DNA of 64,000 bases from Bacteriovoracaceae bacterium (GCA_046595005.1 JBKJPL010000036.1:35140-99139); one strand, 5' to 3'. Counted from the first letter of the stretch, positions 12,454-26,822 are shown. Notes: a model not told the origin generated them from the letters alone. Made by a program: numbers and translations.

Positions 12454-12705
12454 CTAAAGACGCTGAGAACCTTTCTGATCGCCGATATATTCAAAACGCT
12501 GAACAGTTTTTCCATCCACTTCAACCGTCTCAAGAAACATAGAAAGTGGTCTGACCCAGATCTTTGCGGCTTCATTCTCATAAAGGCACTCATAAACGAC
12601 CATCCACTCCATCGTCTCCGAGTGGCGTGCGAGTTCGTGAACCTTATAGGTCTTGCCCTTGTAATGACGATAAATTCCACCAAGCTTTAGTTCGTCTTTC
12701 ACCAA
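12454..12705 (-). CDS. DUF1653 domain protein
   Basis: YRHYKGKTYKV...ARHSETMEWMVVYECLY...WVRPLSMF...RF signature. Confidence 0.92.
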   Translation of the reverse strand: MVKDELKLGGIYRHYKGKTYKVHELARHSETMEWMVVYECLYENEAAKIWVRPLSMFLETVEVDGKTVQRFEYIGDQKGSQRL

Positions 12706-14051
12706 GATATTTTCTCCAGAAACATGAATGGGAAGATCCCAATGAAGAACATCATAATCAGGATGATGAGATATGGGAACATCTCGAAGAGCGACATATC
12801 GAGAATTTTGGTCTTCGTCCGCGAAGGATTGGTTCCGAGAAAGAGCTTTGAGAAAAGTAAGAAGAAGAGAATACCGTTAAGGCAGGTCGCAAAGATATGA
12901 CCAAGCCCAAGATAAGGCTGTTGTTCAAGGAGGCCGGTAATAACCAGATCTTCCGCGACAAAAGATGCGAGCAGCGGAACACCAATGAGACAGAAACCGA
13001 AAAGGCAAAAAAGAGTCGCGAGTTTTGGAAAGTCCTGAGCGAGGCCATAGTATGACTGAGATTTTCTGAAGGAGATGTGTCCCTGGATATGAGACATAAT
13101 TGACCAGAGAGCAATTCCTGAGAAAGAAATAACCATCATATGGAGATATGAACCACGGAGAGCAACACTGGTCGCCTGAAGGCCGGTGAGGATGAGAGAG
13201 GCCTGGGCAATATAAAAATAAGTAACCTGCTTTTGAACGTTCTCCTCAAAGATTCCGCGATAAGACCAGTAGATTGAGGAAAAAATTGAAAATCCAAGAA
13301 GCATGATCTTAAATAAATCGGGTTCGGCACTATAGTTTGGGAGCATGAACTGAACAAAGAGAAGTACTCCCGCGCGCGGAAGGAATATTGCCGCGAGCTC
13401 GTACCATCTGACCTCGTCAACAAGATCGTGAACCCATGAATGAAAAGGAAAAATTCCATGCGACTGGTAAACAATAAGAAAACAAAGGAGGAGAACATCG
13501 ACTCTGAAGAACTCAGCAGGATATTCCATCAATGGGTAAAGTAAGTAACCTGCAGAAGAAGATTTAATCATCAATACAACGGCACAGATAAAACATAGAG
13601 AATGCTGAATCAGGTAAGTACCACCTGAATGTGAAGTTCCATCACGCATATTCTTCAGGAAGTTTCGTCCGGGAACTCCACGCTGGAGGAAATAGAAGAA
13701 AAAGAATGTCGGCATATTGTCTGCCATGACAATACCCATTCCACCACCAAGGAGAAGGAGAAAGTCGCGGTTGAATGTGATCTCATTCCTTACCGGAAAC
13801 AGACCCATAAATAAGGCCCCACAGAAGATGGAACCTACAAAGAGACTGGGACGGTTAAAGGAAAAGGAAAGGAGTGAATGAGTGCTGACAGTTGCTTCCG
13901 GTAAAGAAAAAAAGAGCCATGTCATAAGGACAAAGAGAATCATGAGAACAGAAAGAGTGAGTTCCTTAGTCCTGTGAAGTTTCGGCGCAAATATCCAGCC
14001 ACCAAAAGTGAGAAGAAGTGGAAGTGTTTTAAGAGCAGCTTCAAAAGGCAT
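12699..14051 (-). CDS. Proton-conducting membrane transporter subunit (NuoM/MrpD-like, divergent)
   Basis: Highly hydrophobic; GIFPFHSW, YGLAQDFP, LIGVPLLASFVAEDL resemble the PF00361 family; start overlaps the dabB stop (TAATG). Confidence 0.75.
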   Translation of the reverse strand: MPFEAALKTLPLLLTFGGWIFAPKLHRTKELTLSVLMILFVLMTWLFFSLPEATVSTHSLLSFSFNRPSLFVGSIFCGALFMGLFPVRNEITFNRDFLLLLGGGMGIVMADNMPTFFFFYFLQRGVPGRNFLKNMRDGTSHSGGTYLIQHSLCFICAVVLMIKSSSAGYLLYPLMEYPAEFFRVDVLLLCFLIVYQSHGIFPFHSWVHDLVDEVRWYELAAIFLPRAGVLLFVQFMLPNYSAEPDLFKIMLLGFSIFSSIYWSYRGIFEENVQKQVTYFYIAQASLILTGLQATSVALRGSYLHMMVISFSGIALWSIMSHIQGHISFRKSQSYYGLAQDFPKLATLFCLFGFCLIGVPLLASFVAEDLVITGLLEQQPYLGLGHIFATCLNGILFFLLFSKLFLGTNPSRTKTKILDMSLFEMFPYLIILIMMFFIGIFPFMFLEKISW

Positions 14052-15367
14052 TATTTAATCCTCAGAAGTTTAGATAACAAGGCATTATCCCACTTCATCA
14101 TCTTCTTCTCGGTCTGAAAAATTAGTTTCATGGGATAACTCACGCCCCGAAGAAAGCGATGAGTGAAGTGATCAAGATGAAAGGAGTGCAAAGCATGCAC
14201 ATAAATTTTCTTCTGGACCGTTAACGGGAGAAATTGAATAAAGGAAAGTCCACGACGGATACTGACGTCCTGTTTAACAATCGGATTGTCTGTGAAATCC
14301 TGGATAAGAGAAAGTGAACGCAGGAACTGCCATGTTCGAAGAGATGCATGTGCCACCATGTGAAACATAGCAAAGTTTGTGTAACCGAGAGCAATTTCAA
14401 TATAAATGATTCCTACCTGGGTGATGGTTGCAAATCCCAGCATGGTCTTGGCATCAGATCTGGTTCTACCTACAAGTGTTGCCCAGATGGCAGATAGGGC
14501 CCCGATAACTCCGATTGCGATCAGAAGCGATGGAAAATTCTCCAGATAATTGTGAAAACGTATGAGTAGAAATGGTCCGAGATGAACTGAAAGAGCACCA
14601 TAAAAAATTGCACTGGATGGAGTTGGCCCTTCCATCGCTGTCGGAAGCCACGACGACATCGGAAGTTGCCCCGCCTTAGCGAGAGAAGCAAATATGATGA
14701 AAATTCCGATGAAGATAAGACCACTCCCCTCTGCATGATTCAGAAGTTTAGGAAGTTCGGTGAAATCAGTTGAATGCAAATAAAGATGTGCCCATGCACC
14801 TGCCGCGAGAATACCCATATCACAGATCCGGTAGCTCACAATCGCTTTGATCGAATGCCTCACTGGCTGAACCTGAGTATAAAAATAACTGATGAGTAGA
14901 ACTGATGTCGTTCCCACTAGCTCCCACCCTATGAAGAGTAGATCGATAGAGCGGGCAAAGCTTACAATATTGAGACCAAACCAGAGAACGATAAGGAGAA
15001 AGACGAAACGAAAATAACCTTCTTCACGGTGAAGGTAATTTCTTGAGAACCGGAAAATTATCCCAATGAGACATGCTGTGAGTAATGAGTATGTCGCTCC
15101 CAGAAGATCAATAATGAATGGAAGTCCGAAGTAATAATCCCGAACCTCAATCCAGTGCCCATAATCCACAAGAAGTTCTGATGGAGACAGAATCCAGGAA
15201 AGCGTAAAGAGCCAGAATCCAACAGCTACCATCCCCAGCGAAAAAAACTTCACAACCGTCGAGAGAATTCGCTCAGACCAGCGGGTTCGCATGAGGAATG
15301 TCATTCCCAGAACGCACATGAAAATAAATGGAGCTAATAAGGTAGTTAGGAAAAGTTTCTCCATCAT
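14051..15367 (-). CDS. dabB: DabB/MpsA-like NuoL-family membrane subunit of an inorganic-carbon pump
   Basis: GWELVG, AKAGQLPMSSWLPTAMEGPTPSSAIFYGALSVH, KTMLGFATITQVG, HMVAHASLRTWQFL; ATG overlaps the stop of the DUF2309 gene. Confidence 0.85.
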   Translation of the reverse strand: MMEKLFLTTLLAPFIFMCVLGMTFLMRTRWSERILSTVVKFFSLGMVAVGFWLFTLSWILSPSELLVDYGHWIEVRDYYFGLPFIIDLLGATYSLLTACLIGIIFRFSRNYLHREEGYFRFVFLLIVLWFGLNIVSFARSIDLLFIGWELVGTTSVLLISYFYTQVQPVRHSIKAIVSYRICDMGILAAGAWAHLYLHSTDFTELPKLLNHAEGSGLIFIGIFIIFASLAKAGQLPMSSWLPTAMEGPTPSSAIFYGALSVHLGPFLLIRFHNYLENFPSLLIAIGVIGALSAIWATLVGRTRSDAKTMLGFATITQVGIIYIEIALGYTNFAMFHMVAHASLRTWQFLRSLSLIQDFTDNPIVKQDVSIRRGLSFIQFLPLTVQKKIYVHALHSFHLDHFTHRFLRGVSYPMKLIFQTEKKMMKWDNALLSKLLRIK

Positions 15368-18117
15368 GAGGAGATCTCCGCAAAATCCAGAGACTTCACC
15401 AGTGACATAAGTTCAAGAGAACTTCCTACTTTTTTAGAACTTCCGCCTTCGTTATGAAGTTCTTTCCATTTCCCGTGGCCATAAAGAAGCCACTTTCCGG
15501 TTTCTGGATCATGGACCACAAGTCTCAACCAGTGCTGGCGGACAATATTCCGGAGACGAGGGTGTCCATTGAAAAGAATTTCCACTCTTTCAAAAGGTGC
15601 TTCAATGATAGTCATGCAACGAATTGGCTCATGAATCTCAACCATCTGACGGGCAAGCCCTATCCGGAGATCTCCCTGAGATCCGGTCATCACTCCTAAA
15701 AGAGAAGTCAGGTTGAGTGGAAGCTTGGATCCACAGCCAAAGTTTTCATTATCAACGAGGGAGAAATAATAATCCATGTTGATGTTACAAGCGACGGGAA
15801 CGCCACCAATCACAACCTGGGCAAGTATTTTTCCATCCGGATCAATCGTCCAGTCGTACGTATGAAGGAATGATCGGCGATTCAGAAACAGGCCCTTTGT
15901 CAGATCTCTCTTAGCGACAACTGAGAGAGCATTTTTCGAATGCCCATACTCGGGCCGTGGCTGGGCAGGATCCATCGCGCGTTCTCTGACATGCTTGGCA
16001 GCAGCGTCTGCATCAAGCTTTGCTTCACGCAGACTGAAACGCTGGCAACGTTCAAGGGCATTTCTCTTTAGAGCTTCGGTGAGATTTTTCCTGACAGCAT
16101 CCAGGAGTTTGATTTTCTCCGGTGGAACCATATCCAGATCAAAGAAAGATACTTCATCAGCGCAAGTATCATGGTAGCCGGAAATCACCACCGTTGATTC
16201 AGGTATGTGAACTCCTGAAGTTTCAAGCAGAACTCTCACTCTTGGATCATTGGCCATCCTGGCAAATGCTCTTGAGTTCGGAATACCAGCGTTACCGCCG
16301 CATGCTCCGCAACCATAGGCTTGCCTGAATGGATTGTTTGTCGACGAAGATCCATGTGAGAGAAGTACGATCAGAGGAGAGAAGAAACTTCTCATACCAC
16401 ACTGATCAAAAATATTTTTTACAATTCCTGCCATCTCATTGACATCATAACCGTGATACTCGTCCGTCTTTTCGACGTTGATAATAGTTTTTGGTTCTGA
16501 AGACATCAGCGAGAAAAAACCACTCTTTATCTTCTTTGCATTTCCCGGAAAAAATATCTGTAAGAACATCGGAATAATACTCAGAGTGCCCAGGATCAAA
16601 GTCGTGATAATGCCTCTAAAGAGAGTGCGCGACTGATAATAGAATGCCAGATCTGTGAATCCATGAAAGTTATTCAATTTCTTAAAGACTGTACTCTGAG
16701 ATTTATCCACAATGATTTCTGTGACTATTTTCGAAGGTTTCACCACCGGAGGGCATTGAGCAATAAGCCTCTCATTTTTTATAGACGCAAACTTCATATC
16801 AATACCAAAGAAACCCACCACTCCATAGGTAGCGAGTTTCGGGTTCACTTCTTCAGTGTGACGGCGGATAGATTCTTCGCGATCATCGATACAAAAAAGA
16901 ATCTGTGCTTCTGGAGTATTGGTGATGCTCTGGCTACCCTTCCCTATTATCGCTTTTAAGGCCTTCCGGTAATACTCATGTTCAAAAGCTTCATGCCATA
17001 GACGAACATTATGAGTTTTCTCCGCGAGATCTACACCGTCAATGACCTGAAGGGCCTCTTCGCAGGTAAGTTTCTGAACCCAACGGGTGTCAAGCTTCAT
17101 ATCTTTGGTGATCTGATAAAGAGCGAGTGAAAGGTTGAAACTTGAAAGCTTGATTTCTTCTTTCCGCCCACGAATGAGAGTAATGTCGAGAGAATGTAAT
17201 TCGGAGAAGAAAGTATCGACTGAAGATTCAATCAGGAGAAGAGCTGCGATGTACTCAGTGAGCTTGATGACAGGAGCTTTTACAGTAGCTTGCCATGGTT
17301 CAACTTCGAGCTTGTTAACCATTCCGGACCATCCCTTCAGATCGAAGAGAATATCCAGAAGATAACTTTCCCAGATTTCTTCAGGAATTTTCATCTTCTG
17401 AAGCTCATTAACAATTATATCGGCTGGATCAGATCCACCATATGCTTCAATCTTTGCGGCAAAGACTTTCTGCCAGCCAGAAAGAAAACTACCAGTCTGT
17501 TTTATGTCATAGGCGAGAAATTTCCAGAATCCCTCTTGAGTGAAGGGATTACTCCAGAAGCTTTGTCCCTGATCGAGATAGCTTCCAGCGAGCCGGGTAA
17601 TGAGTGGATGAATTGAGAGATTAAAAAGCACGTTGTAATGTTTTTCCCAGTAGCCTTTTGCACGCCACTTAACGGGTGAACGGGACAGGACAAGAGAAGA
17701 GTCTTTTACTTTCTCACGACAGAACATCCATAACCGTTCATCTTCCAGTTCAGGTTGTATTTCATCATCGTTGAAATTTAATTCTGAGAACATGAGGTGA
17801 TAAAAAAAATCTTTTTTTTCTAATCCCATTACATTCAGAAAAGGCAGATCGTGGTAGTAGCCCAGATAATGTTCCAGGGCCTCCATGATATCTTCCTGCC
17901 CGATCTTTTTCTGAGCATGGAGATCTTTGTAACGTTCAACCGGCCAGTAAGTTTTCGCCCGGTAGAGTGGTCCAGCCTCTGAAAGAGCATCATGAAAGTC
18001 GAGATGCTCGAACATCTGGAGGATATTATTGTGAACAAAACTATGCAGTGGATTTTGAAGCGGAAGCTTACTTCTGATGGCGCCCAATAGTTTTTCAAAT
18101 TGAATGTTTGAAGTCAT
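15364..18117 (-). CDS. dabA: DabA/MpsB (DUF2309) beta-carbonic-anhydrase-like subunit
   Basis: LPLQNPLHSFVHNNIL N-terminus; Zn-ligand motifs FCIDDREES, HGSSSTNNP, CGACGG; RPEYGH, LFLNRRSFL, INMDYYFS, HEPIR. Confidence 0.93.
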   Translation of the reverse strand: MTSNIQFEKLLGAIRSKLPLQNPLHSFVHNNILQMFEHLDFHDALSEAGPLYRAKTYWPVERYKDLHAQKKIGQEDIMEALEHYLGYYHDLPFLNVMGLEKKDFFYHLMFSELNFNDDEIQPELEDERLWMFCREKVKDSSLVLSRSPVKWRAKGYWEKHYNVLFNLSIHPLITRLAGSYLDQGQSFWSNPFTQEGFWKFLAYDIKQTGSFLSGWQKVFAAKIEAYGGSDPADIIVNELQKMKIPEEIWESYLLDILFDLKGWSGMVNKLEVEPWQATVKAPVIKLTEYIAALLLIESSVDTFFSELHSLDITLIRGRKEEIKLSSFNLSLALYQITKDMKLDTRWVQKLTCEEALQVIDGVDLAEKTHNVRLWHEAFEHEYYRKALKAIIGKGSQSITNTPEAQILFCIDDREESIRRHTEEVNPKLATYGVVGFFGIDMKFASIKNERLIAQCPPVVKPSKIVTEIIVDKSQSTVFKKLNNFHGFTDLAFYYQSRTLFRGIITTLILGTLSIIPMFLQIFFPGNAKKIKSGFFSLMSSEPKTIINVEKTDEYHGYDVNEMAGIVKNIFDQCGMRSFFSPLIVLLSHGSSSTNNPFRQAYGCGACGGNAGIPNSRAFARMANDPRVRVLLETSGVHIPESTVVISGYHDTCADEVSFFDLDMVPPEKIKLLDAVRKNLTEALKRNALERCQRFSLREAKLDADAAAKHVRERAMDPAQPRPEYGHSKNALSVVAKRDLTKGLFLNRRSFLHTYDWTIDPDGKILAQVVIGGVPVACNINMDYYFSLVDNENFGCGSKLPLNLTSLLGVMTGSQGDLRIGLARQMVEIHEPIRCMTIIEAPFERVEILFNGHPRLRNIVRQHWLRLVVHDPETGKWLLYGHGKWKELHNEGGSSKKVGSSLELMSLVKSLDFAEISS

Positions 18118-18187
18118 TTAATCATTCTATCTCTAAACTGGGTATGAAACCAACTTTTAGTAATCCCTTTTTTGAAAGCAAATTCTC

Positions 18188-18340
18188 CTACAAACCGCCT
18201 GAACTGATCATTTCCACAACCGGGAGATAGATATCTTTCGCCACGGAAGATCTTTCAGCATTACTTAAGAGGTAAATAGATATAGCCACCCATATAGTTA
18301 TTATTACCAGAGCGAAAAGTTTCTTCGATTTATGGCTCAT
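18188..18340 (-). CDS. Unannotated 50-aa single-pass membrane protein between sulP and dabA
   Basis: Hand translation MSHKSKKLFALVIITIWVAISIYLLSNAERSSVAKDIYLPVVEMISSGGL*; basic N-terminus then a hydrophobic helix; starts 13 nt after the sulP stop; weak SD. Confidence 0.55.
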   Translation of the reverse strand: MSHKSKKLFALVIITIWVAISIYLLSNAERSSVAKDIYLPVVEMISSGGL

Positions 18341-18353
18341 TCGTTCTTTCACG

Positions 18354-19865
18354 TTAATGAGCCTTGATAAGCTGAAAAATCTTCCTGAACTTTTCCGGGA
18401 GTTTGATGGTCACTATCTTTCCTTTCTTTTCAAGTTGAGCGCTTGCTTTGGAGAAGAAAGCCAGAGAAGTCGGATCAATGTAGTTAATGTTAGCAAAGTT
18501 AATTTCTATATTCTTATAAGCAGAAACTTCATTTATTATTTCTTCTTGTTTCAAGACAGAAAAGAAAACGAGTGCGCCGTCAAACTCCAGTATTGCTTTG
18601 TCCCCATCACCCTCGATCCTATAACTCGGCTTAAGAAACGAAGATGGACTAGCTCCCTGACACCACGACAAAAACGCTTTCATGATAATTCCCGCAAAGA
18701 TTCCTGCCAGAAGATCAATCCCCAGAGTAACTACGATAGTGGTGATGTAGGAAAGAAAGGGATTCCATCCCAGGTTCTTCATGTCTTTAAATTGTTTCGG
18801 TTGCGCCAGTCTAAACCCTACAAGGATGAGAATTGCAGACAACGAGGACAAAGGTATGGCATTCAGCACTTTAGGAAACAGTAGAAGAAACAACAAAATA
18901 AAAAAACCATGCGAAAAATTTGCGAGTGCCGTACGCGCTCCCTGAGTGATGCTCGCAGATGATCGGACAATTTCCGCAATGATAGGTAAGCCCCCAAGTA
19001 ATCCGCAACAGATGTTTACAACTCCTTTACTCCAGAGCTCGCGGTCAAAATCAGACTCTCTGTTGAGAGGATCAAGTTTATCTACGGCGCTTGCAGACAA
19101 GATCGATTCAAGGCTTGCAACAAAGAACAGCGAGATAATTGAAAGTAGAGATTCTTTTGAAGTGATGAGATCGAAAGATGGGCGTATTAAAAATTGTGAA
19201 ATATCAGTAGGAATGTTTACCAGCTCAATATTCGGCAAAAACCTGGTGAGAAATATACCAGTGCACACCACCACCAGAGGTGCAGGAACATATTTGGTAA
19301 GACTTAATTTCAGGTACGGATAACTCAAAAGCAAAACCAGACAAAGAAGCCCGATGATAGCTGCTTCTGGATTTAATCCGATTATAGAATGTGGTATCTG
19401 GAGAAGTGAATTGATGATAGAGCCAGATGATTTATGTCCCAGGAATACATGAATTTGCTTAATCAAGATGATAAGCCCGATTGATGAAAGCATGCCATGA
19501 ACAACAGAAGACGGAAAAAGAGATACAAATCTTCCGGCCTTCAAAATACCGCTCAGAATCTGAAGAACACCCATTATAATTACACAAGCGAGCATGCGCC
19601 TGAAACCCATGATCGGGTCACCATGAGAAAGGCTTTGAATGGCGCCCAGGACTACGACAATGAGTCCCGCTGCCGGACCATTAATAGTGACATATGATCC
19701 ACCAAGTATGGACCCTATTATTCCTCCTAAAACCGCAGAAACAAGACCAGCGCTGGATGGTGCCCCAGAAGCAATGGATATGCCCAATGACAAAGGCAGT
19801 GCAATTAGAAACACGACTAATCCAGCCTTAATATCTATGGGTGCGGACTCTTTTATGTTTATCAT
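18354..19865 (-). CDS. SulP/SLC26-family anion (probably bicarbonate) transporter with STAS domain
   Basis: DIKAGLVVFLIALPLSLGISIASGAP, TINGPAAGL, GGLPIIAEIVRSS, and C-terminal STAS-like YIDPTSL. Confidence 0.9.
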   Translation of the reverse strand: MINIKESAPIDIKAGLVVFLIALPLSLGISIASGAPSSAGLVSAVLGGIIGSILGGSYVTINGPAAGLIVVVLGAIQSLSHGDPIMGFRRMLACVIIMGVLQILSGILKAGRFVSLFPSSVVHGMLSSIGLIILIKQIHVFLGHKSSGSIINSLLQIPHSIIGLNPEAAIIGLLCLVLLLSYPYLKLSLTKYVPAPLVVVCTGIFLTRFLPNIELVNIPTDISQFLIRPSFDLITSKESLLSIISLFFVASLESILSASAVDKLDPLNRESDFDRELWSKGVVNICCGLLGGLPIIAEIVRSSASITQGARTALANFSHGFFILLFLLLFPKVLNAIPLSSLSAILILVGFRLAQPKQFKDMKNLGWNPFLSYITTIVVTLGIDLLAGIFAGIIMKAFLSWCQGASPSSFLKPSYRIEGDGDKAILEFDGALVFFSVLKQEEIINEVSAYKNIEINFANINYIDPTSLAFFSKASAQLEKKGKIVTIKLPEKFRKIFQLIKAH

Positions 19866-19896
19866 TACGCATTCTCCAAATTGTTCGATTTGAGTT

Positions 19897-19939
19897 AGTA
19901 TAAAGAAGCGTTATGAACGAGAGATGAATTCCTGATGAA
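19897..19939 (-). promoter_or_regulatory. Candidate sulP promoter: -10 TATACT plus three direct repeats at 11-bp period
   Basis: ATGAA at 19913, 19924 and 19935 (+); minus-strand TATACT at 19902-19897, 10 nt from the nearest repeat. Confidence 0.6.
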
Positions 19940-19966
19940 AAAAAATTCATACTGAGAGACATGTGA

Positions 19967-20635
19967 ATGAGAATTTTAGTTGTTGAGGACGAGTTAAAAC
20001 TTGCAAAATATACGGCCCAAACGCTGTCAGAAATGAGCTACATAGCTGAGATAGCTTCGACAGGCATGAAAGCACGGGAGTTATTCAAGTTAATTGATTA
20101 TGACCTTATCATTCTGGATATTAAGTTACCCGATGCTGACGGCATTGATTTATGCAGAGAATTTAAAAATTTAAAGCCAAAAAAACCGGTTCTCATGCTC
20201 ACTACACTCTCGCAAGTCTATGACAAAGTGAAAGGCTTGAACTCAGGGGCGGACGATTATATGACTAAGCCTTTTCACGTAGAGGAATTATCTGCGAGAG
20301 TCCGCGCTCTTCTCAGAAGGCATGATGTACAAGGTCTTCACCTCAAATGTGCAGACCTTGAGCTGGACCTTGTGAGGCGAGAAGCAATCCGAAATGGAAA
20401 AAATATAAAACTTACGACAAAAGAATTCGGGTTACTTGAATATCTTCTCAGAAATGTGGGCAGACCCCTTTCCAGGGCCCAGATTGCAGAGCATGTATGG
20501 GATCTGCATTTTGATCCAGAATCTAATGTCGTTGATGCCTACATTAAACAGCTGCGAAAGAAAATAGACAGCGAAAACTCTAAAAAACTAATTAAGACGA
20601 TAGTTGGTTTAGGCTATGTCATTAGTGATGAGTAA
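19967..20635 (+). CDS. OmpR/PhoB-family response regulator (CusR/CzcR-like)
   Basis: VEDE, LDIKLP, GADDYMTKPF, LTTKEFGLLEYL, SNVVDAYIKQLRKKID, TIVGLGY. Confidence 0.95.
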   Translation: MRILVVEDELKLAKYTAQTLSEMSYIAEIASTGMKARELFKLIDYDLIILDIKLPDADGIDLCREFKNLKPKKPVLMLTTLSQVYDKVKGLNSGADDYMTKPFHVEELSARVRALLRRHDVQGLHLKCADLELDLVRREAIRNGKNIKLTTKEFGLLEYLLRNVGRPLSRAQIAEHVWDLHFDPESNVVDAYIKQLRKKIDSENSKKLIKTIVGLGYVISDE

Positions 20636-22286
20636 TTCATATAAGGATCTAAAGAAAAGTGCTCTAAAATTCGCAGCTATAATTTCCCTGATATTATTTT
20701 CTATCGATTACTTTCTCTACTTTTCACGAATCAACAGCAAAAAATCTGAAATTGTGCTCGATATCCTCCAACGGGATGAGAAGCAGACTAATGAAATCTA
20801 TCGACTTATTAATAGTCTGGAAGATGATCTGAGTTTTCTTGAAAAAGAGATATTTTCCGCTCAAAAGTCTGAAGCAGAAGAGAAAGTTAAACCTCTCATC
20901 TCTTTCATGGAAACGCATCCCCATTATATCAAGCTTCGGCTTGCGACGATTGAGGGCAAAGAGCTTTTTAAGATTGTAAAAAGATCAAAAGTAACTGGAT
21001 TTGAAGAATCAAAAAAATATTTTCACCTTGGCGGTCAGAAGTTTTTCGATGATTTAAAAAAAGCAGGTCATGACTCATATTTCTTCTCGGCAATGGATGC
21101 CAACATCATTGACGGTAAAATAGAAAAACCACTTCGTCCGACGATTCGGGTATCGAAACGAACGAGATTATTTTCCGGGGCAGAAGGAATTCTGATCTTA
21201 AACATTGACGGTCATGACATTCTGAATTTGTTTACCTATGGCAGTGGGATTTCAAAATTTGTTTCAGAAAAAATATTCGTGGATGACTCGGGAAATTTTG
21301 TCGCTTCGTACCCTCTGCTTCCGCTCGAGAAGTATACGATCTCGAAGAAAAAAATAGACGCTGAGATTCTACAGAATCTGAATAAAACTCCGAAGAACTA
21401 TGGATCTTTCGCATTCGAAGATAGAATCGTTATATACACAAAGTTATCATTACCAAGAACCAATGAAAATTGGTTCATGATCTCACTGATATCTGAAAAT
21501 GCTATCAGTAAGTCTTTTCAATCGGAAAGGCTAGCTTGGCTGTTCTGGGAAATGCTGTTTTTTTGTCTTGGCGTGACGTGGTTCTGGAAGTCTGAGAAGA
21601 AAAGATATCATGAACAAGTAGTAAAGGTTCTCCTTCATGAAAGAAGTGAGTTTATAGAAAATGTTTCTCACCAGCTTAAAACACCCCTGGCAATTATAAA
21701 CAATTATCTTTCCCAACCCGAACGAACCTCAGCACACATTTCAGACATCAAGAGTGAGGTCTCTCACCTGATTAAGGTCATAGATGATCTTTTGCTTTTA
21801 TCTCATGTTGAGTCGTTTAAAGATATTTCCTTACAAAAAGAAAGTGTCCTGGAAGTTGTAAGTCAGGCAATTGACCTGGTTGCAGAAAAGGCCAAGGAAA
21901 AGAAAGTTAATCTGAAATTTAATCTTAGGGAAGATCTTCTGGATTCAACCAATTTCCTGGAACGTTATATGATGCCCGAGCTGATAAAATCGGCGATCTC
22001 TAACATCCTGGTGAATGCTATTGATCATGGACCCACCGGATCAGATATAAATATTGAAATGTATCTCGAAGGCTCACGAATTTTCATCACAATAAAGGAT
22101 TCTGGTCCTGGTATTCCAGATTCATTTGTCCCGATGATCTTTAACAGATTCACCCGGGCACAGGGCCAGGAGCGTAAAGGATCAGGCCTTGGACTTGCTA
22201 TTTCCAGGAAGATAATAGAACTCCATGGAGGCTCGATCAGACTATCCTCAAATACAGATGGAGCGACGTTCGAAATTATCCTCTGA
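20616..22286 (+). CDS. Sensor histidine kinase with periplasmic Cache-like domain
   Basis: Two TM segments flanking about 270 aa containing YIKLRL..EGKE and DANIIDGKIEKPLRPTIR; SHQLKTPL H-box, NAIDH, DSGPGI, GSGLGLAI. Confidence 0.9.
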   Translation: MSLVMSNSYKDLKKSALKFAAIISLILFSIDYFLYFSRINSKKSEIVLDILQRDEKQTNEIYRLINSLEDDLSFLEKEIFSAQKSEAEEKVKPLISFMETHPHYIKLRLATIEGKELFKIVKRSKVTGFEESKKYFHLGGQKFFDDLKKAGHDSYFFSAMDANIIDGKIEKPLRPTIRVSKRTRLFSGAEGILILNIDGHDILNLFTYGSGISKFVSEKIFVDDSGNFVASYPLLPLEKYTISKKKIDAEILQNLNKTPKNYGSFAFEDRIVIYTKLSLPRTNENWFMISLISENAISKSFQSERLAWLFWEMLFFCLGVTWFWKSEKKRYHEQVVKVLLHERSEFIENVSHQLKTPLAIINNYLSQPERTSAHISDIKSEVSHLIKVIDDLLLLSHVESFKDISLQKESVLEVVSQAIDLVAEKAKEKKVNLKFNLREDLLDSTNFLERYMMPELIKSAISNILVNAIDHGPTGSDINIEMYLEGSRIFITIKDSGPGIPDSFVPMIFNRFTRAQGQERKGSGLGLAISRKIIELHGGSIRLSSNTDGATFEIIL

Positions 22287-22360
22287 TTGTAAAGCCGATC
22301 GTGAAACTCCAATAACATTCAGCTGCCATACGCGCTGTCCCTGCAGTATGATAAAAGCCT

Positions 22361-23576: not shown

Positions 23577-23978
23577 ATGCAGCCCAAGATAATCGCTATT
23601 ATCGACGATGAGCCCGAGATGGAAGACCTCTATCTTCTGATTCTCGAATCCCTTATTGATCGGGAAGTCGTCGAACTCCAATTCTTCCCGGATGGGCTGA
23701 CCTTTCTGACGTGGTTCCGTAAAAACAGACCCGATCTTCTCCTCTGCGATATCAATCTTCCGGGAATGAATGGAACTGAGCTGGTCCAGGAGATGCGTCG
23801 CCTGGAAATACTTGGCTCAACGCCCTGCATCCCGGTGAGTTTCGTGAGTGGCCACCATCCTGAGAACTATACGGACATCATGAAAGAATGTGCTGTGACC
23901 CGATTTATCACCAAACCCCTTTCGGCGCGGGAAACTCTGGCCCTGATCGAGAAAGATCTGGGATTAGTTTCCCCATAG
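23577..23978 (+). CDS. Single-domain response regulator
   Basis: IIDDE, CDINLPGMNG, VSG, TKP. Confidence 0.9.
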   Translation: MQPKIIAIIDDEPEMEDLYLLILESLIDREVVELQFFPDGLTFLTWFRKNRPDLLLCDINLPGMNGTELVQEMRRLEILGSTPCIPVSFVSGHHPENYTDIMKECAVTRFITKPLSARETLALIEKDLGLVSP

Positions 23979-24011
23979 ATTCAAAGTCCATTCTGAGAGA
24001 AAATATTCCGA

Positions 24012-26822
24012 ATGAGAGAATACGCATGGATCGCAGAGCTGGCCGCTGAGTGCAAAGAGTACTCTGACTCTTTAGGGGCGTACTTCGCCAAGTCTGTATC
24101 AAAAGTTTCATTTGATCCGGTTCCCCAGCATGAGATGAAGCGCTCATGGGCCGTACTCACGCGTGACCTCGTTTATTTTTCATTCGATGAAGATTCGCCT
24201 TACCCGCCCGAGATGCAGGAAACTATCCGCGCGCTCGAGACAATCGGGATTGATAAGTTCAACCAGGATCTCCTGAACGAAGCAAGTCTCGCTCCTATTT
24301 TCTCGGCCAGCTTTGAAAAACTTTTCAATACTCTTGAAGCTCATCCGCAGATTCTGGAAATGTTGGATCAGGCAGATATTATCGAAGATATTCTTGGTGT
24401 CGTAGCAAGAAGATATCTTCCGATTTTTAAACTCTTCCCGGTTTTCAGCACGGAAGCACTTGCTGTTGTTCCTCACCTTCGCGAGCCACTTTTTACCGCT
24501 CTCTATGAGCTCCCTGAATCTGAACATAAGCGCCTCACCTTTCTCACTGAGAAAATCATGCGGAAGTTTTATGGCGAACAGGTAAGACCCAAGCTCTATG
24601 AAATGCTCAAGTCCAACATCAAGGGAAGAAATCTTCTTCTTCCTCTGATCGATGAGGCCGTGAATCACCTTCCACCTGATCGTTGTATGACTTCTCTTAT
24701 TTCTATTCTCTGTACTCCGCGTGAGGAACTCACGCAGGGAAGAATTATTTCCATCGTCCTCCAGGAACTCGGAGGAATGTATGTGAAGCTTGCCCAGGTT
24801 CTCGCAGAACTTGCTCCTCCTTCACTAGCTAAAGAACTTCGACACCAGCAGGATAAGCTCGGTGGTATTTTCGGCTCTCAGGAAAAATCCTGGAAATATG
24901 TTCTGGAAATTCTGAGTCGCCCTGCCTGGGAAAGAATCCGTTCCTATATTCATATTCCCACTCACACGCAGAATGCTTTCGCTGGTGCCTCGGTTGGTGC
25001 CATTTATGAATTCCAGCTCACGGAGCATGGGAAAAGAAAATTAGGTACTGAGAACTCGATACTCCTTAAAGTTCAAAGACCAGGGCTCACGGTACTTTTT
25101 GAGCAGCAGAAAAATACTCTTCTCTCTATTCTCGATCATCTTGACCAGACTCTGCCGGAAACAGAATTATCCGTACAGGAACAGCAGGAAGTGAAGGCGC
25201 TCATCACTGCTTTAAAAAGAACGATTATCAATTACGCCGCTCAATCTATCGGCGAGCTTGATTTCCGGATCGAAAAGAAAAATGCGGAGATGGTAAGAGC
25301 TGCACTGAAAGGGAAATTCGACCTCGAAATTCCCCAGTATTTTCACGTTGAGCCTGATGTCTCGATGATGGAAAGAATTAACGGCGAAAAAATCACTTCG
25401 ATTGTTCAGTCCAGATATCTTGAACGCATGAGTATTTCCGACCTCGTCTCCGATGCTTATCTCTATCTCATGTTCAAGGAAGGTATCATCTGGGCCGATC
25501 CACATGCCGGAAATATACTTTATGATCCTGATCGCCATCAGGTAAAACTCATTGATCTTAATCCGTGTTTCACCTGGGAACGCCATACGATCAAGATTTT
25601 TATCGGCTTCCTCTATCGTCTGATTCTCTCTGACCAGAAAGGAATCATGCATTCCCTTTCGGGTCTAGTCGTAAATCCGGATGACCTGAAATCGGAAAAA
25701 AACCAGAAACTCATTAATGACTTTCTCGCACAGGGAAATTCTGGTGCGTTCATTCGTTATCTTTCTGAGTTCGTGCGTCTCCTCGGAGAAGCAAACATCG
25801 ATCTCCGGATTGAAGTTCAGGCCGCTCTTCGCGGGCTGTCTCAGGTTTACATCACATCTGCAGCGATCTCATCGCGAAATAACTTCGGACAGAATTTCCA
25901 GAAGCAATTTGGCTGGAAAGTTGTAGTTAAGCACGTTCTCTCGATTGGACCTTTAAAAGTTATCCGCGCAGCTCTTCCACTCGCTTTTGATCTTGTGAGA
26001 AATTCTCCCGAGCAGGAAGTCGGTCCTACTCTTGATGAGCGCGATCTCTTAGCAATCCATGAGGCCCTCGAACTTCTCAACCAGGAAAACGTCTGCAACA
26101 TTGAAATGCTCCGCACTTCTCCGGAAGACAATACCAATCTCTCACTCGCGGGTGACGGATCAAGTCTCATCAAAAGTTCGCATCTGAGACTCACGATTCA
26201 GACAGAAACTAAACCCGCATCGGTTCGTTATATTATCGAGATTCCATCAAAAGAATGGCTCAAAGAACGCCAGGAATATGTAAAACTTCAGGGTCTGGGT
26301 TTCACACTATGTATTGTGGAATGCATGGAACAGCTTCGAAGACATTCTCTTGAAGATTACTGGCTCGTGGCCGAATTCTGGAATGCTGTTCCCGGAAAAA
26401 GATCTCTGAAAGCAAACAGTATCATTGGTGACGTTCGGGTTGCCGCGCGCATGCTCTTTACCCGTCGTTATGAAAATATCTGGGTATCGGAATACATGAC
26501 GATCTCAAAAAGGAATCGTTTCCTTTGGAAATTGATGATTCACTTTGAAGAAAGATTCGAGAGAAGAGAGCAAGGCTATTTCTATCTTCTGAGTAAAAAA
26601 ATGGGTGCTGCAGAGAAAGTTGGACAGCTCACTTTCGGAACTCTTCACCGTGTGAAAGTTATTACTTATCGACTCATCATCTCAGGCATCAAGACCCTTA
26701 TACGAAGTGCCCGCTTCGAGATGAATCTCCTTCCCCTGTCTACGGACGACCTCATCAATCGTATGATTCACGGACTTCTGCGCCGTGGGGTGCATTTTGA
26801 ACGCAGAAAGAACGAAAAATAG
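24012..26822 (+). CDS. ABC1/UbiB/AarF-family atypical kinase with long extensions
   Basis: LGGMYVKLAQ, ASVGAIY, LKVQRPG, ELDFRIE, MERING, WADPHAGNI. Confidence 0.85.
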   Translation: MREYAWIAELAAECKEYSDSLGAYFAKSVSKVSFDPVPQHEMKRSWAVLTRDLVYFSFDEDSPYPPEMQETIRALETIGIDKFNQDLLNEASLAPIFSASFEKLFNTLEAHPQILEMLDQADIIEDILGVVARRYLPIFKLFPVFSTEALAVVPHLREPLFTALYELPESEHKRLTFLTEKIMRKFYGEQVRPKLYEMLKSNIKGRNLLLPLIDEAVNHLPPDRCMTSLISILCTPREELTQGRIISIVLQELGGMYVKLAQVLAELAPPSLAKELRHQQDKLGGIFGSQEKSWKYVLEILSRPAWERIRSYIHIPTHTQNAFAGASVGAIYEFQLTEHGKRKLGTENSILLKVQRPGLTVLFEQQKNTLLSILDHLDQTLPETELSVQEQQEVKALITALKRTIINYAAQSIGELDFRIEKKNAEMVRAALKGKFDLEIPQYFHVEPDVSMMERINGEKITSIVQSRYLERMSISDLVSDAYLYLMFKEGIIWADPHAGNILYDPDRHQVKLIDLNPCFTWERHTIKIFIGFLYRLILSDQKGIMHSLSGLVVNPDDLKSEKNQKLINDFLAQGNSGAFIRYLSEFVRLLGEANIDLRIEVQAALRGLSQVYITSAAISSRNNFGQNFQKQFGWKVVVKHVLSIGPLKVIRAALPLAFDLVRNSPEQEVGPTLDERDLLAIHEALELLNQENVCNIEMLRTSPEDNTNLSLAGDGSSLIKSSHLRLTIQTETKPASVRYIIEIPSKEWLKERQEYVKLQGLGFTLCIVECMEQLRRHSLEDYWLVAEFWNAVPGKRSLKANSIIGDVRVAARMLFTRRYENIWVSEYMTISKRNRFLWKLMIHFEERFERREQGYFYLLSKKMGAAEKVGQLTFGTLHRVKVITYRLIISGIKTLIRSARFEMNLLPLSTDDLINRMIHGLLRRGVHFERRKNEK

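Follow-up and report, generated by a model that had tools for sequence, protein, structure and literature searches.

DAB pumps are described as vectorial carbonic anhydrases, and their DabC as an essential, non-pumping, NuoM-like subunit, in three reports (PMC13684180, PMC13144422, bioRxiv 10.1101/476713). As published, DAB2 is a dimer of DabA and a DabB with 15 helices (PMC13144422), DAB1 consists of DabA and DabB together with DabC (PMC13684180), and the DabB1 and DabB2 proteins of Halothiobacillus neapolitanus are 559 and 551 residues long (bioRxiv 10.1101/476713). The locus analysed here comes from a Bacteriovoracaceae bacterium (GCA_046595005.1) and occupies positions 12,454 to 22,286 of a stretch of 64,000 nucleotides (JBKJPL010000036.1:35140-99139), which is called the window below. 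It contains genes for a DAB-type pump (dabA, dabB and dabC) and for a small DUF1653 protein, a gene for a SulP transporter (sulP) followed by a short open reading frame (the micro-ORF), and the genes of a two-component system, a response regulator and a sensor kinase. The locus is probably a composite of two units of different age: an old three-subunit dabABC(-DUF1653) pump and an inserted cassette containing a kinase-controlled sulP gene, whose product is a probable bicarbonate transporter.

The difference in age is seen at the corresponding site of the relatives. Ten genomes of the genus have HrpB, dabC-dabB-dabA and an (OsmC) hydrolase at this position, with no insert between dabA and its divergent neighbour. 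An osmC or hydrolase gene faces dabA in all 13 other congeneric loci, and sulP, the micro-ORF, the regulator and the kinase are all missing there. The closest relatives, GCA_036675045.1 (DabC 84% identical), G152 (75%) and a scaffold from ENA (74%), are equally free of the cassette. Among the loci examined, the cassette stands at the osmC-dabA site only in the window genome and in one sister metagenome-assembled genome (MAG), GCA_002059065.1. In this MAG sulP diverges from the regulator, kinase, OsmC and hydrolase genes, which are ordered as in the window, and the proteins are 91% (SulP), 94% (regulator) and 86.5% (kinase) identical to those of the window; a second contig of the MAG (L119) carries dabB-dabC-DUF1653-HrpB. 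The GC fraction of the cassette (about 18160-22330) is 0.401, against 0.435-0.477 in the flanking genes. A mobile-element signature was not found at the cassette ends, which have neither direct nor inverted flanking repeats.

Because the 13 congeners lack the cassette, the sister MAG has it and its GC fraction is low, a segment of about 4.2 kb would have entered the osmC-dabA spacer in this lineage. The first unit would be an old operon, passed on vertically, that encodes a vectorial carbonic anhydrase of the DAB type with three subunits and has its own promoter. The second unit, the cassette, would have been inserted immediately upstream of the dabA promoter, in the lineage to which the window genome and the sister MAG belong, and the insertion would have re-created a SulP-DAB adjacency that is known from other lineages. 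The original prediction, made from the window sequence, had taken the five genes and the two-component system for one sensor-controlled module and had proposed a synteny search for their co-occurrence. The 13 congeneric loci contradict the single module, and the search gave a negative answer: the two-component system and SulP are not conserved with dabABC in these loci, and no orthologue of the kinase was found in 150 genomes of the family. The prediction is partly supported, in that the locus appears to be one for inorganic carbon, but a recent juxtaposition rather than one regulated module.

On the sequence evidence, the cassette forms an independent unit. The sulP gene is divergent from the regulator gene in three further loci (L087, L088 and L090), where the regulator orthologues are 68-94% identical to that of the window. 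The kinase gene follows the regulator gene in L087 and L088; the L090 contig stops inside the regulator gene. In L088, an ENA contig, SulP, the regulator and the kinase are 65%, 68% and 44% identical to the window proteins and the gene after the kinase is a different one; in L090, a contig of a Bacteriovoracaceae MAG, SulP is 60% and the regulator 69% identical. The sulP/regulator unit lies on these two contigs in surroundings different from those of the window.

The gap between sulP and the regulator gene contains three ATGAA repeats spaced at exactly 11 bp (19913-19939). About 0.04 such triples are expected per window, and this is the sole site in the 3.64-Mb genome. All four loci (the window, L087, L088 and L090) have, on the sulP strand, a -10 hexamer, a 10-nt gap and three ATGAR repeats at 11-bp spacing. 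The -10-like hexamers are TATACT, TATACT, GATAAT and CATAAT, and the bases between the repeats differ. A -10 element, a 10-nt gap and 11-bp repeats are the geometry of class II activation by PhoB-type regulators. The ATGAA repeats are most likely the operator through which the regulator acts on sulP. The phosphorylated regulator would bind the three repeats, which substitute for a -35 box, and activate sulP; the repeats may also serve in autoregulation of the regulator gene. The likeness to the class II Pho boxes of PhoB/OmpR systems lies in the 11-bp direct repeats, their position 10 nt upstream of the -10 element and the neighbouring gene of an OmpR-family regulator. The present site differs in its ATGAA half-site and its three repeats, in the predicted periplasmic Cache-type sensor of the kinase and in the absence of phosphate genes.

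The two-component pair consists of a regulator with receiver and winged-helix domains and a kinase with HisKA and HATPase_c domains, encoded by overlapping genes next to the tandem direct repeats. The nearest NCBIfam model of the regulator is of the CopR/CztR type, and the match is below its cut-off. Prediction places the first transmembrane helix (TM) of the kinase at about residues 16-38; another hydrophobic stretch, at about residues 305-325, was read by eye from the sequence. A periplasmic stretch of about 265 residues would lie between them. The Cache-type match of the kinase (PF21623) reaches 25.8 bits, slightly below the Pfam cut-off of 27, and its homologues at 41-48% identity carry dCache_1 (PF02743). 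The original prediction had described an OmpR regulator and a Cache-domain kinase divergent from sulP, a Pho-box-like array at the shared promoter with a -10 hexamer 10 nt away, and an ORF of 50 codons. All of these hold as observations.

The micro-ORF product has a basic N-terminus, one hydrophobic segment (residues 12-30) and a polar tail. An ORF of 50 codons and like build lies 5 nt after the sulP stop codon in L090, the only other regulator-linked locus with downstream DNA. No counterpart was found in four sulP loci that have no adjacent OmpR-type regulator. These comparisons weakly suggest that the micro-ORF is real and part of the cassette, not of the DAB unit. In a sister SulP subclade without the OmpR/Cache pair, a kinase-like gene lies convergently just downstream of sulP (L040, L089 and L091). 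The convergent gene in L040 (7229-8314) encodes a cytoplasmic PAS histidine kinase of 361 residues, and those in L089 and L091 resemble the kinase core only weakly in tblastn.

SulP is likely to carry bicarbonate, the substrate best supported by association with other genes. With two N-terminal SulP motifs as seeds, a scan for SulPs of this subfamily found 29 loci. DabA, plus DabB where the contig allows, adjoins SulP in ten of them (Bacteroidota and Verrucomicrobiota), and four are fusions of SulP with a beta-carbonic anhydrase in Legionellales and Gemmatales (L098, L099, L102 and L115, of about 640-764 residues). In three other loci (L092, L095 and L116) SulP has an unassigned C-terminal extension of about 200 residues. 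Within the Bacteriovoracaceae, SulPs of this group lie downstream of two-subunit dabAB genes in three genera; a fourth genus has one upstream of dabABC. The SulP-DAB adjacency occurs in Bdellovibrionota, Bacteroidota and Verrucomicrobiota. On the SulP tree the DAB-adjacent label requires five changes, and none of 500 label shuffles gave as low a number. The window protein belongs to a clade of seven members, of which the regulator-linked ones are basal. Because the SulP of the other genus with a SulP-dabABC order belongs to a different clade, the adjacency in the window would have arisen independently. A metagenome scan with the window SulP returned no relatives.

Compared with BicA-type SulPs and with the SulP-beta-carbonic-anhydrase fusions, the window protein has the SulP core, is 35-39% identical to its fused relatives and finds its best NCBIfam model in BicA (NF050096 equivalog). 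It differs in its score of 170.6 bits, far below the cut-off of 880, in the absence of a STAS match (PF01740) at E 0.001 from the roughly 100 residues after the core, in the trailing micro-ORF and in the dedicated two-component system; two relatives have weak STAS matches. The suggestion of the original prediction that SulP carries bicarbonate is plausible, as the subfamily adjoins DAB operons or is fused to beta-carbonic anhydrases. It is conceivable, although unlikely, that the protein carries another anion (sulfate, a C4-dicarboxylate or molybdate), that the Cache kinase senses that solute and that the adjacency to dabABC is accidental. The SulP family is functionally mixed, and DauA scores almost as well as BicA, both far below the cut-off. 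Several close SulP relatives have no neighbour concerned with inorganic carbon, and the usual ligands of dCache domains are organic acids or amino acids. These points are opposed by the abundance of DAB-adjacent members and beta-carbonic-anhydrase fusions in the subfamily, across five phyla, by the clustering of the DAB label on the tree and by the landing of the insertion exactly at the dabA promoter.

The third subunit of the pump, the product of dabC, has a predicted AlphaFold structure with a pLDDT of 86.6, and the top Foldseek matches of this model are NuoM, NdhD and MrpD (TM-score 0.80-0.84). The NuoM residues E144, K234, K265, H322 and H348 are replaced in it, and E407 is kept. The same holds for every lineage examined: the glutamate of TM5, the lysines of TM7 and TM8 and both histidines of TM11 are lost, and the glutamate of TM12 remains. 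An exhaustive search of 1.84 billion representatives gave 1508 matches at E 0.001 but only six below 1e-30; so few matches indicate that the subunit is very divergent. In a profile search of the phylum ordinary NuoM proteins also scored above the threshold, and the true third subunits were marked by a clear gap in score. With most of the residues of the NuoM proton path lost, the third subunit probably resembles the small DabC of DAB1 in serving as a scaffold or an allosteric partner.

A second working ion channel, which would alter the stoichiometry or the ion specificity of the pump, is a rather improbable role for this protein. The model does show all 14 helices of the fold, with the broken ones where they are usually found; the TM12 glutamate survives as part of a Glu-Asp pair that is invariant, and a His and an Arg beside the lost lysines are conserved. 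However, the replacement of the TM5, TM7, TM8 and TM11 residues has no exception among the lineages examined, and the published small DabC has hydrophobic residues at these places and no water chain (PMC13684180).

The short DabB (434-457 residues) and the third subunit always occur together in the loci compared. In two-subunit loci DabB has 583-625 residues, apart from one ORF call of 705 residues that is extended upstream. Three more genera of the family also have the three-gene form, as do a different family of the phylum and one Verrucomicrobiota MAG, and the 14 three-subunit rows of the DabA tree lie on one side of a single branch of moderate support (84/76). An origin of the third subunit as the split-off C-terminus of a long DabB was rejected: phmmer detected no similarity to ten long DabBs at E values up to 10, and the protein is collinear with full-length NuoM. 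Matches of 225-289 residues to its C-terminal half were considered as candidates for the published small DabC, and three of the four are uninformative fragments on contigs of about 1 kb. The DUF1653 gene directly follows dabC in ten of the 13 further loci of the genus; a second genus has it close by, on the other strand. It was dismissed as a general fourth subunit, as it was not found in the other lineages with three-subunit DABs.

The dabA gene has kept a promoter of its own. Six cassette-free relatives (L017, L019, L023, L025, L027 and L084) have TTGGTT, a spacer of 17-18 nt and TA[AG]A[ACG]T upstream of dabA, and the window retains both elements (Table 1). As the cassette ends just upstream of the -35 element, dabABC would be expressible without the kinase. 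Kinase control of the whole five-gene unit, which the original prediction had assumed, is not required and is unproven. No terminator-like site was found in the gap between the micro-ORF and dabA by a consensus scan, which also missed both promoters that are supported by conservation. As no terminator is evident, read-through from the regulated sulP promoter into dabABC is possible, and whether such kinase-dependent read-through takes place is about an even question. In the window and the two closest relatives the dabA -10 element lies 6 nt before the ATG, and the dabA mRNA of this subclade may be leaderless; distant congeners have a leader of 30 nt with a ribosome-binding site. Cassette-free congeners (L016-L025) carry an A/T-rich element, ATTAA-N6-8-T(T/A)CAT, about 5-25 nt upstream of the dabA -35 element. 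This element, whose last letters, TTCAT, are the ATGAA half-site in reverse complement, is replaced by the cassette in the window.

The retained promoter bears on the idea that sulP, the micro-ORF and dabABC are a single co-evolved five-gene operon, the expression of which depends on the two-component system. The five genes are indeed co-oriented, the operator faces sulP, the gap before dabA has no terminator-like site, and SulP-dabA-dabB-dabC operons exist in another genus. The cassette is missing, however, from 13 congeneric dabABC loci, the native dabA promoter persists, the SulP of that other genus is from a different clade, and the two-component system travels with sulP, not with dab. A single operon of this kind is quite unlikely.

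DabA itself is a clear member of its family: its PF10070 score is 667.6 bits, where the cut-off is 25. The protein aligns with DabA2 of PDB 9rd0 (E 2e-68), and its residues C409, D411, H588 and C603 correspond to the zinc and active-site residues C351, D353, H524 and C539 of 9rd0_A. These four are conserved in all 23 DabAs compared. The motif regions (residues 595-603 and 715-726) differ from both solved DABs, with RPEYGH in place of RPEWGL and YGCGAC in place of LDCGAC. The first of these motifs reads DPAQPRPEYGH where DAB2 has DW(xxx)RPEWGL, with Leu at the bicarbonate position. The form RPE[YFLC]GH is found in 23 of 23 DabAs from Bdellovibrionota, Bacteroidota and Verrucomicrobiota, whereas DabA1 and DabA2 have RPEWGL, and the residue before the catalytic Cys, Asp in DabA1 and DabA2, is Gly in the window clade. 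In the basal three-subunit DabAs (L117 and L082) the sequence is NNPH[EK]SAYDCGACGG, which is nearer the DabA1 motif than the window version. One report assigns to the Leu of RPEWGL the role of preventing stable bicarbonate binding (PMC13684180). Judging from these motifs, the direction and the coupling of the reaction in this branch of DabA may differ from those of the solved DABs.

DabB is collinear with residues 6-354 of NuoL (TM1-11), on which about 360 columns of its model superpose at 2.2-2.9 A. After the NuoL match the model has a disordered stretch and then a helix of 41 residues (395-435), with no TM12-15. NuoL residues E144, D178, K229, H334 and H338 are kept and K342 is replaced by Arg. 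With the zinc ligands of DabA and the channel residues of DabB intact, a DAB-type CO2-hydrating pump with an extra antiporter-like subunit, as originally predicted, remains the probable function. The cytoplasmic DabA would hydrate CO2 that has diffused inward to bicarbonate, and the reaction would be driven by cation flow through the shortened NuoL-like DabB, the channel of which has kept its charged residues. That DabABC instead works reversibly or in reverse, with SulP, for homeostasis of pH or ion gradients, as in the membrane-potential role first proposed for MpsAB, is very improbable. In its favour, the bicarbonate-excluding Leu (role as in PMC13684180) is His in all 23 DabAs, the conserved Asp beside the catalytic Cys is Gly in the window clade, two beta-carbonic anhydrases already supply bicarbonate and the SulP-DAB linkage recurs. 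Against it, the zinc ligands and channel residues are intact, and all DAB homologues tested to date rescue carbonic-anhydrase-free E. coli by CO2 hydration (PMC13684180).

The source organism belongs to the Bacteriovoracaceae, of the phylum Bdellovibrionota, and its genome of 3.64 Mb is 99.6% complete. The genome encodes one DabA, two beta-carbonic anhydrases, both outside the window, and phosphoenolpyruvate (PEP) carboxylase. RuBisCO, an alpha-carbonic anhydrase and a pyruvate-carboxylase domain were not found in it, in agreement with the earlier RuBisCO-free assignment of the window; a lack of carbonic anhydrase, originally raised as a point to check, was not borne out. The presence of PEP carboxylase, with RuBisCO absent, points to a demand for bicarbonate, and the role of the locus would be the supply of bicarbonate to the carboxylases of a heterotroph. 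A SulP paralogue with 39% identity (L002, C30:147895-149968) is encoded directly beside a beta-carbonic anhydrase gene of the same genome, and a third paralogue, on C19, lies about 13 kb from the PEP carboxylase gene.

Several observations weigh against the reading of an old CO2-hydrating pump joined by a bicarbonate-transporter cassette. The two beta-carbonic anhydrases weaken the case for needing a pump. SulP is far under the BicA equivalog cut-off, and about half of its closest relatives adjoin no inorganic-carbon gene. DabA deviates in the motifs that are said to couple catalysis to DabB and to enforce one direction. The conservation of the micro-ORF comes from a single other locus (L090), and the promoter scan flagged neither the sulP nor the dabA promoter.

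The locus consists of six close-packed genes on the minus strand (12454-19865) and the divergent two-component pair on the plus strand (Table 1). The dabA/dabB and dabB/dabC junctions are the overlaps ATGA and TAATG, and the dabC stop codon overlaps the translationally coupled DUF1653 gene at GTGA/TTG. The regulator and kinase genes overlap by 20 nt, the gap between sulP and the regulator gene is 101 bp, and that between the micro-ORF and dabA is 70 nt. The five co-oriented genes listed originally were found as minus-strand ORFs with matching families, and the overlap of the last three is confirmed by their junctions. All the listed genes are real, but the list had overlooked a sixth coupled gene, that for DUF1653. 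After the hydrolase gene, the window (23577-26822, plus strand) encodes a stand-alone receiver-domain protein and an ABC1 atypical-kinase protein of 936 residues, in an order that is kept in relatives with and without the cassette.

Table 1. Genes and predicted control elements of the locus (window positions)
Feature	Position	Strand	Description
DUF1653 gene	12454-12705	-	83 aa; PF07866, E 1e-28
dabC (second PF00361 gene, third DAB subunit)	12699-14051	-	450 aa; PF00361, E 2e-16
dabB (short)	14051-15367	-	438 aa; PF00361 + PF00662
dabA	15364-18117	-	917 aa; PF10070, E 3e-200; beta-carbonic-anhydrase-like catalytic subunit
Native dabA promoter (predicted)	18124-18153	-	-35 TTGGTT 18148-18153, 18-nt spacer, -10 TAGAAT 18124-18129
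Micro-ORF	18188-18352	-	54 aa from GTG, 50 aa from ATG at 18340; no family; one predicted TM
sulP	18354-19865	-	503 aa; PF00916, E 4e-63
sulP promoter/operator (predicted)	19897-19939		-10-like TATACT (minus strand, 19897-19902), 10-nt gap, ATGAA at 19913, 19924 and 19935
Response regulator, OmpR/PhoB family	19967-20635	+	222 aa; PF00072 + PF00486
Sensor histidine kinase	20616-22286	+	556 aa; HisKA + HATPase_c; predicted Cache-type domain
Old unit dabA-dabB-dabC(-DUF1653)	12454-18117	-	conserved at this site in each of the 13 further loci of the genus
Inserted cassette (sulP, micro-ORF, regulator, kinase)	18160-22330		about 4.2 kb; boundaries approximate

Specific to the window are the sulP cassette, under presumed kinase control and with a conserved operator, and the independently re-created SulP-DAB adjacency. 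The repeated linkage, here re-created, gives the SulP subfamily a testable substrate. The cassette of sulP, regulator and kinase is small and self-contained, and would be a simple system for studying a signal that controls inorganic-carbon uptake in a heterotroph that is likely a predator. Two further proposals are speculative, and each has little chance of being correct. In the first, the Cache kinase would sense periplasmic bicarbonate, CO2 or pH; if true, this would be the first demonstrated case of an inorganic-carbon transporter under the control of a two-component system. The regulators of inorganic-carbon uptake reported for autotrophs are of the LysR and Crp/Fnr types, not two-component systems, in bioRxiv 10.1101/476713, and a literature search, to which subscription journals were largely closed, returned nothing on two-component control of such a transporter. 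In the second, SulP and a DAB with the His-type motif would form an obligate pair that cycles CO2 and bicarbonate and so interconverts ion gradients or buffers pH, rather than two parallel supply routes; it is proposed because the adjacency was re-created here and recurs in three phyla.

The original prediction had also regarded the gene combination as undescribed. This does not hold for the third subunit, as a NuoM-like DabC has been published for DAB1 (PMC13684180), but the SulP-DAB linkage and the presence of two PF00361 genes with dabA were not found in the literature. The same search, which also covered inorganic-carbon uptake in Bdellovibrionota, retrieved nothing beyond DAB1 and DAB2. 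DAB pumps are studied for their structure and as parts for the engineering of carbon fixation. A complete NuoM-like third subunit beside a truncated DabB offers an evolutionary and structural comparison for the role of the essential DabC.

DAB1 (DabA1-DabB1-DabC), described from the cryo-electron microscopy of the Thermocrinis albus complex and from H. neapolitanus (PMC13684180), shares with the present system a beta-carbonic-anhydrase-like DabA, a NuoL-like DabB and a degenerate NuoM-like third subunit. The third subunit here is of full length (450 residues, with PF00361), whereas DabC, compared by its published description, is half that size and Pfam-free. The DabB of 438 residues is about 110-120 residues shorter than that of H. 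neapolitanus (559) and lacks TM12-15; in DAB1 the protein has about 550 residues and TM12-15 are displaced by the elbow of DabA, whereas the NuoL match here stops near residue 360. The motif NNPYESALDCGACGG, strictly conserved in DabA1 (PMC13684180), reads NNPFRQAYGCGACGG here, RPEWGL is changed to RPEYGH, and there is no carboxysome or RuBisCO context. From these comparisons, the system resembles DAB1 in its way of working, yet departs from it in three features: the third subunit (its size and Pfam status), the length of DabB and the DabA1 motif.

The similarity to DAB2 of H. neapolitanus (PDB 9rd0; PMC13144422) is that of the aligned DabA with all four zinc and active-site residues, and the role in a heterotroph would parallel that of MpsAB of Staphylococcus aureus. 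DAB2 and MpsAB have two subunits and a long, 15-helix DabB, in contrast to the three coupled genes and the short DabB of this locus, and their coupling motifs differ as well. In the cyanobacterial NDH-1MS complex (CupA, NdhF3 and NdhD3; PDB 6tjv) a CO2-hydrating protein likewise sits on a pair of NuoL-like and NuoM-like subunits, and NdhD chains, that of NdhD3 in 6tjv among them, match the third-subunit model with TM-scores of 0.74-0.84. The present locus has no CupA homologue, redox module or other NDH subunit, and its NuoM-like subunit is degenerate. The relationship would be one of analogy, not of membership, in which the layout of an L-like and an M-like subunit mirrors that of the cyanobacterial CO2-uptake complex.

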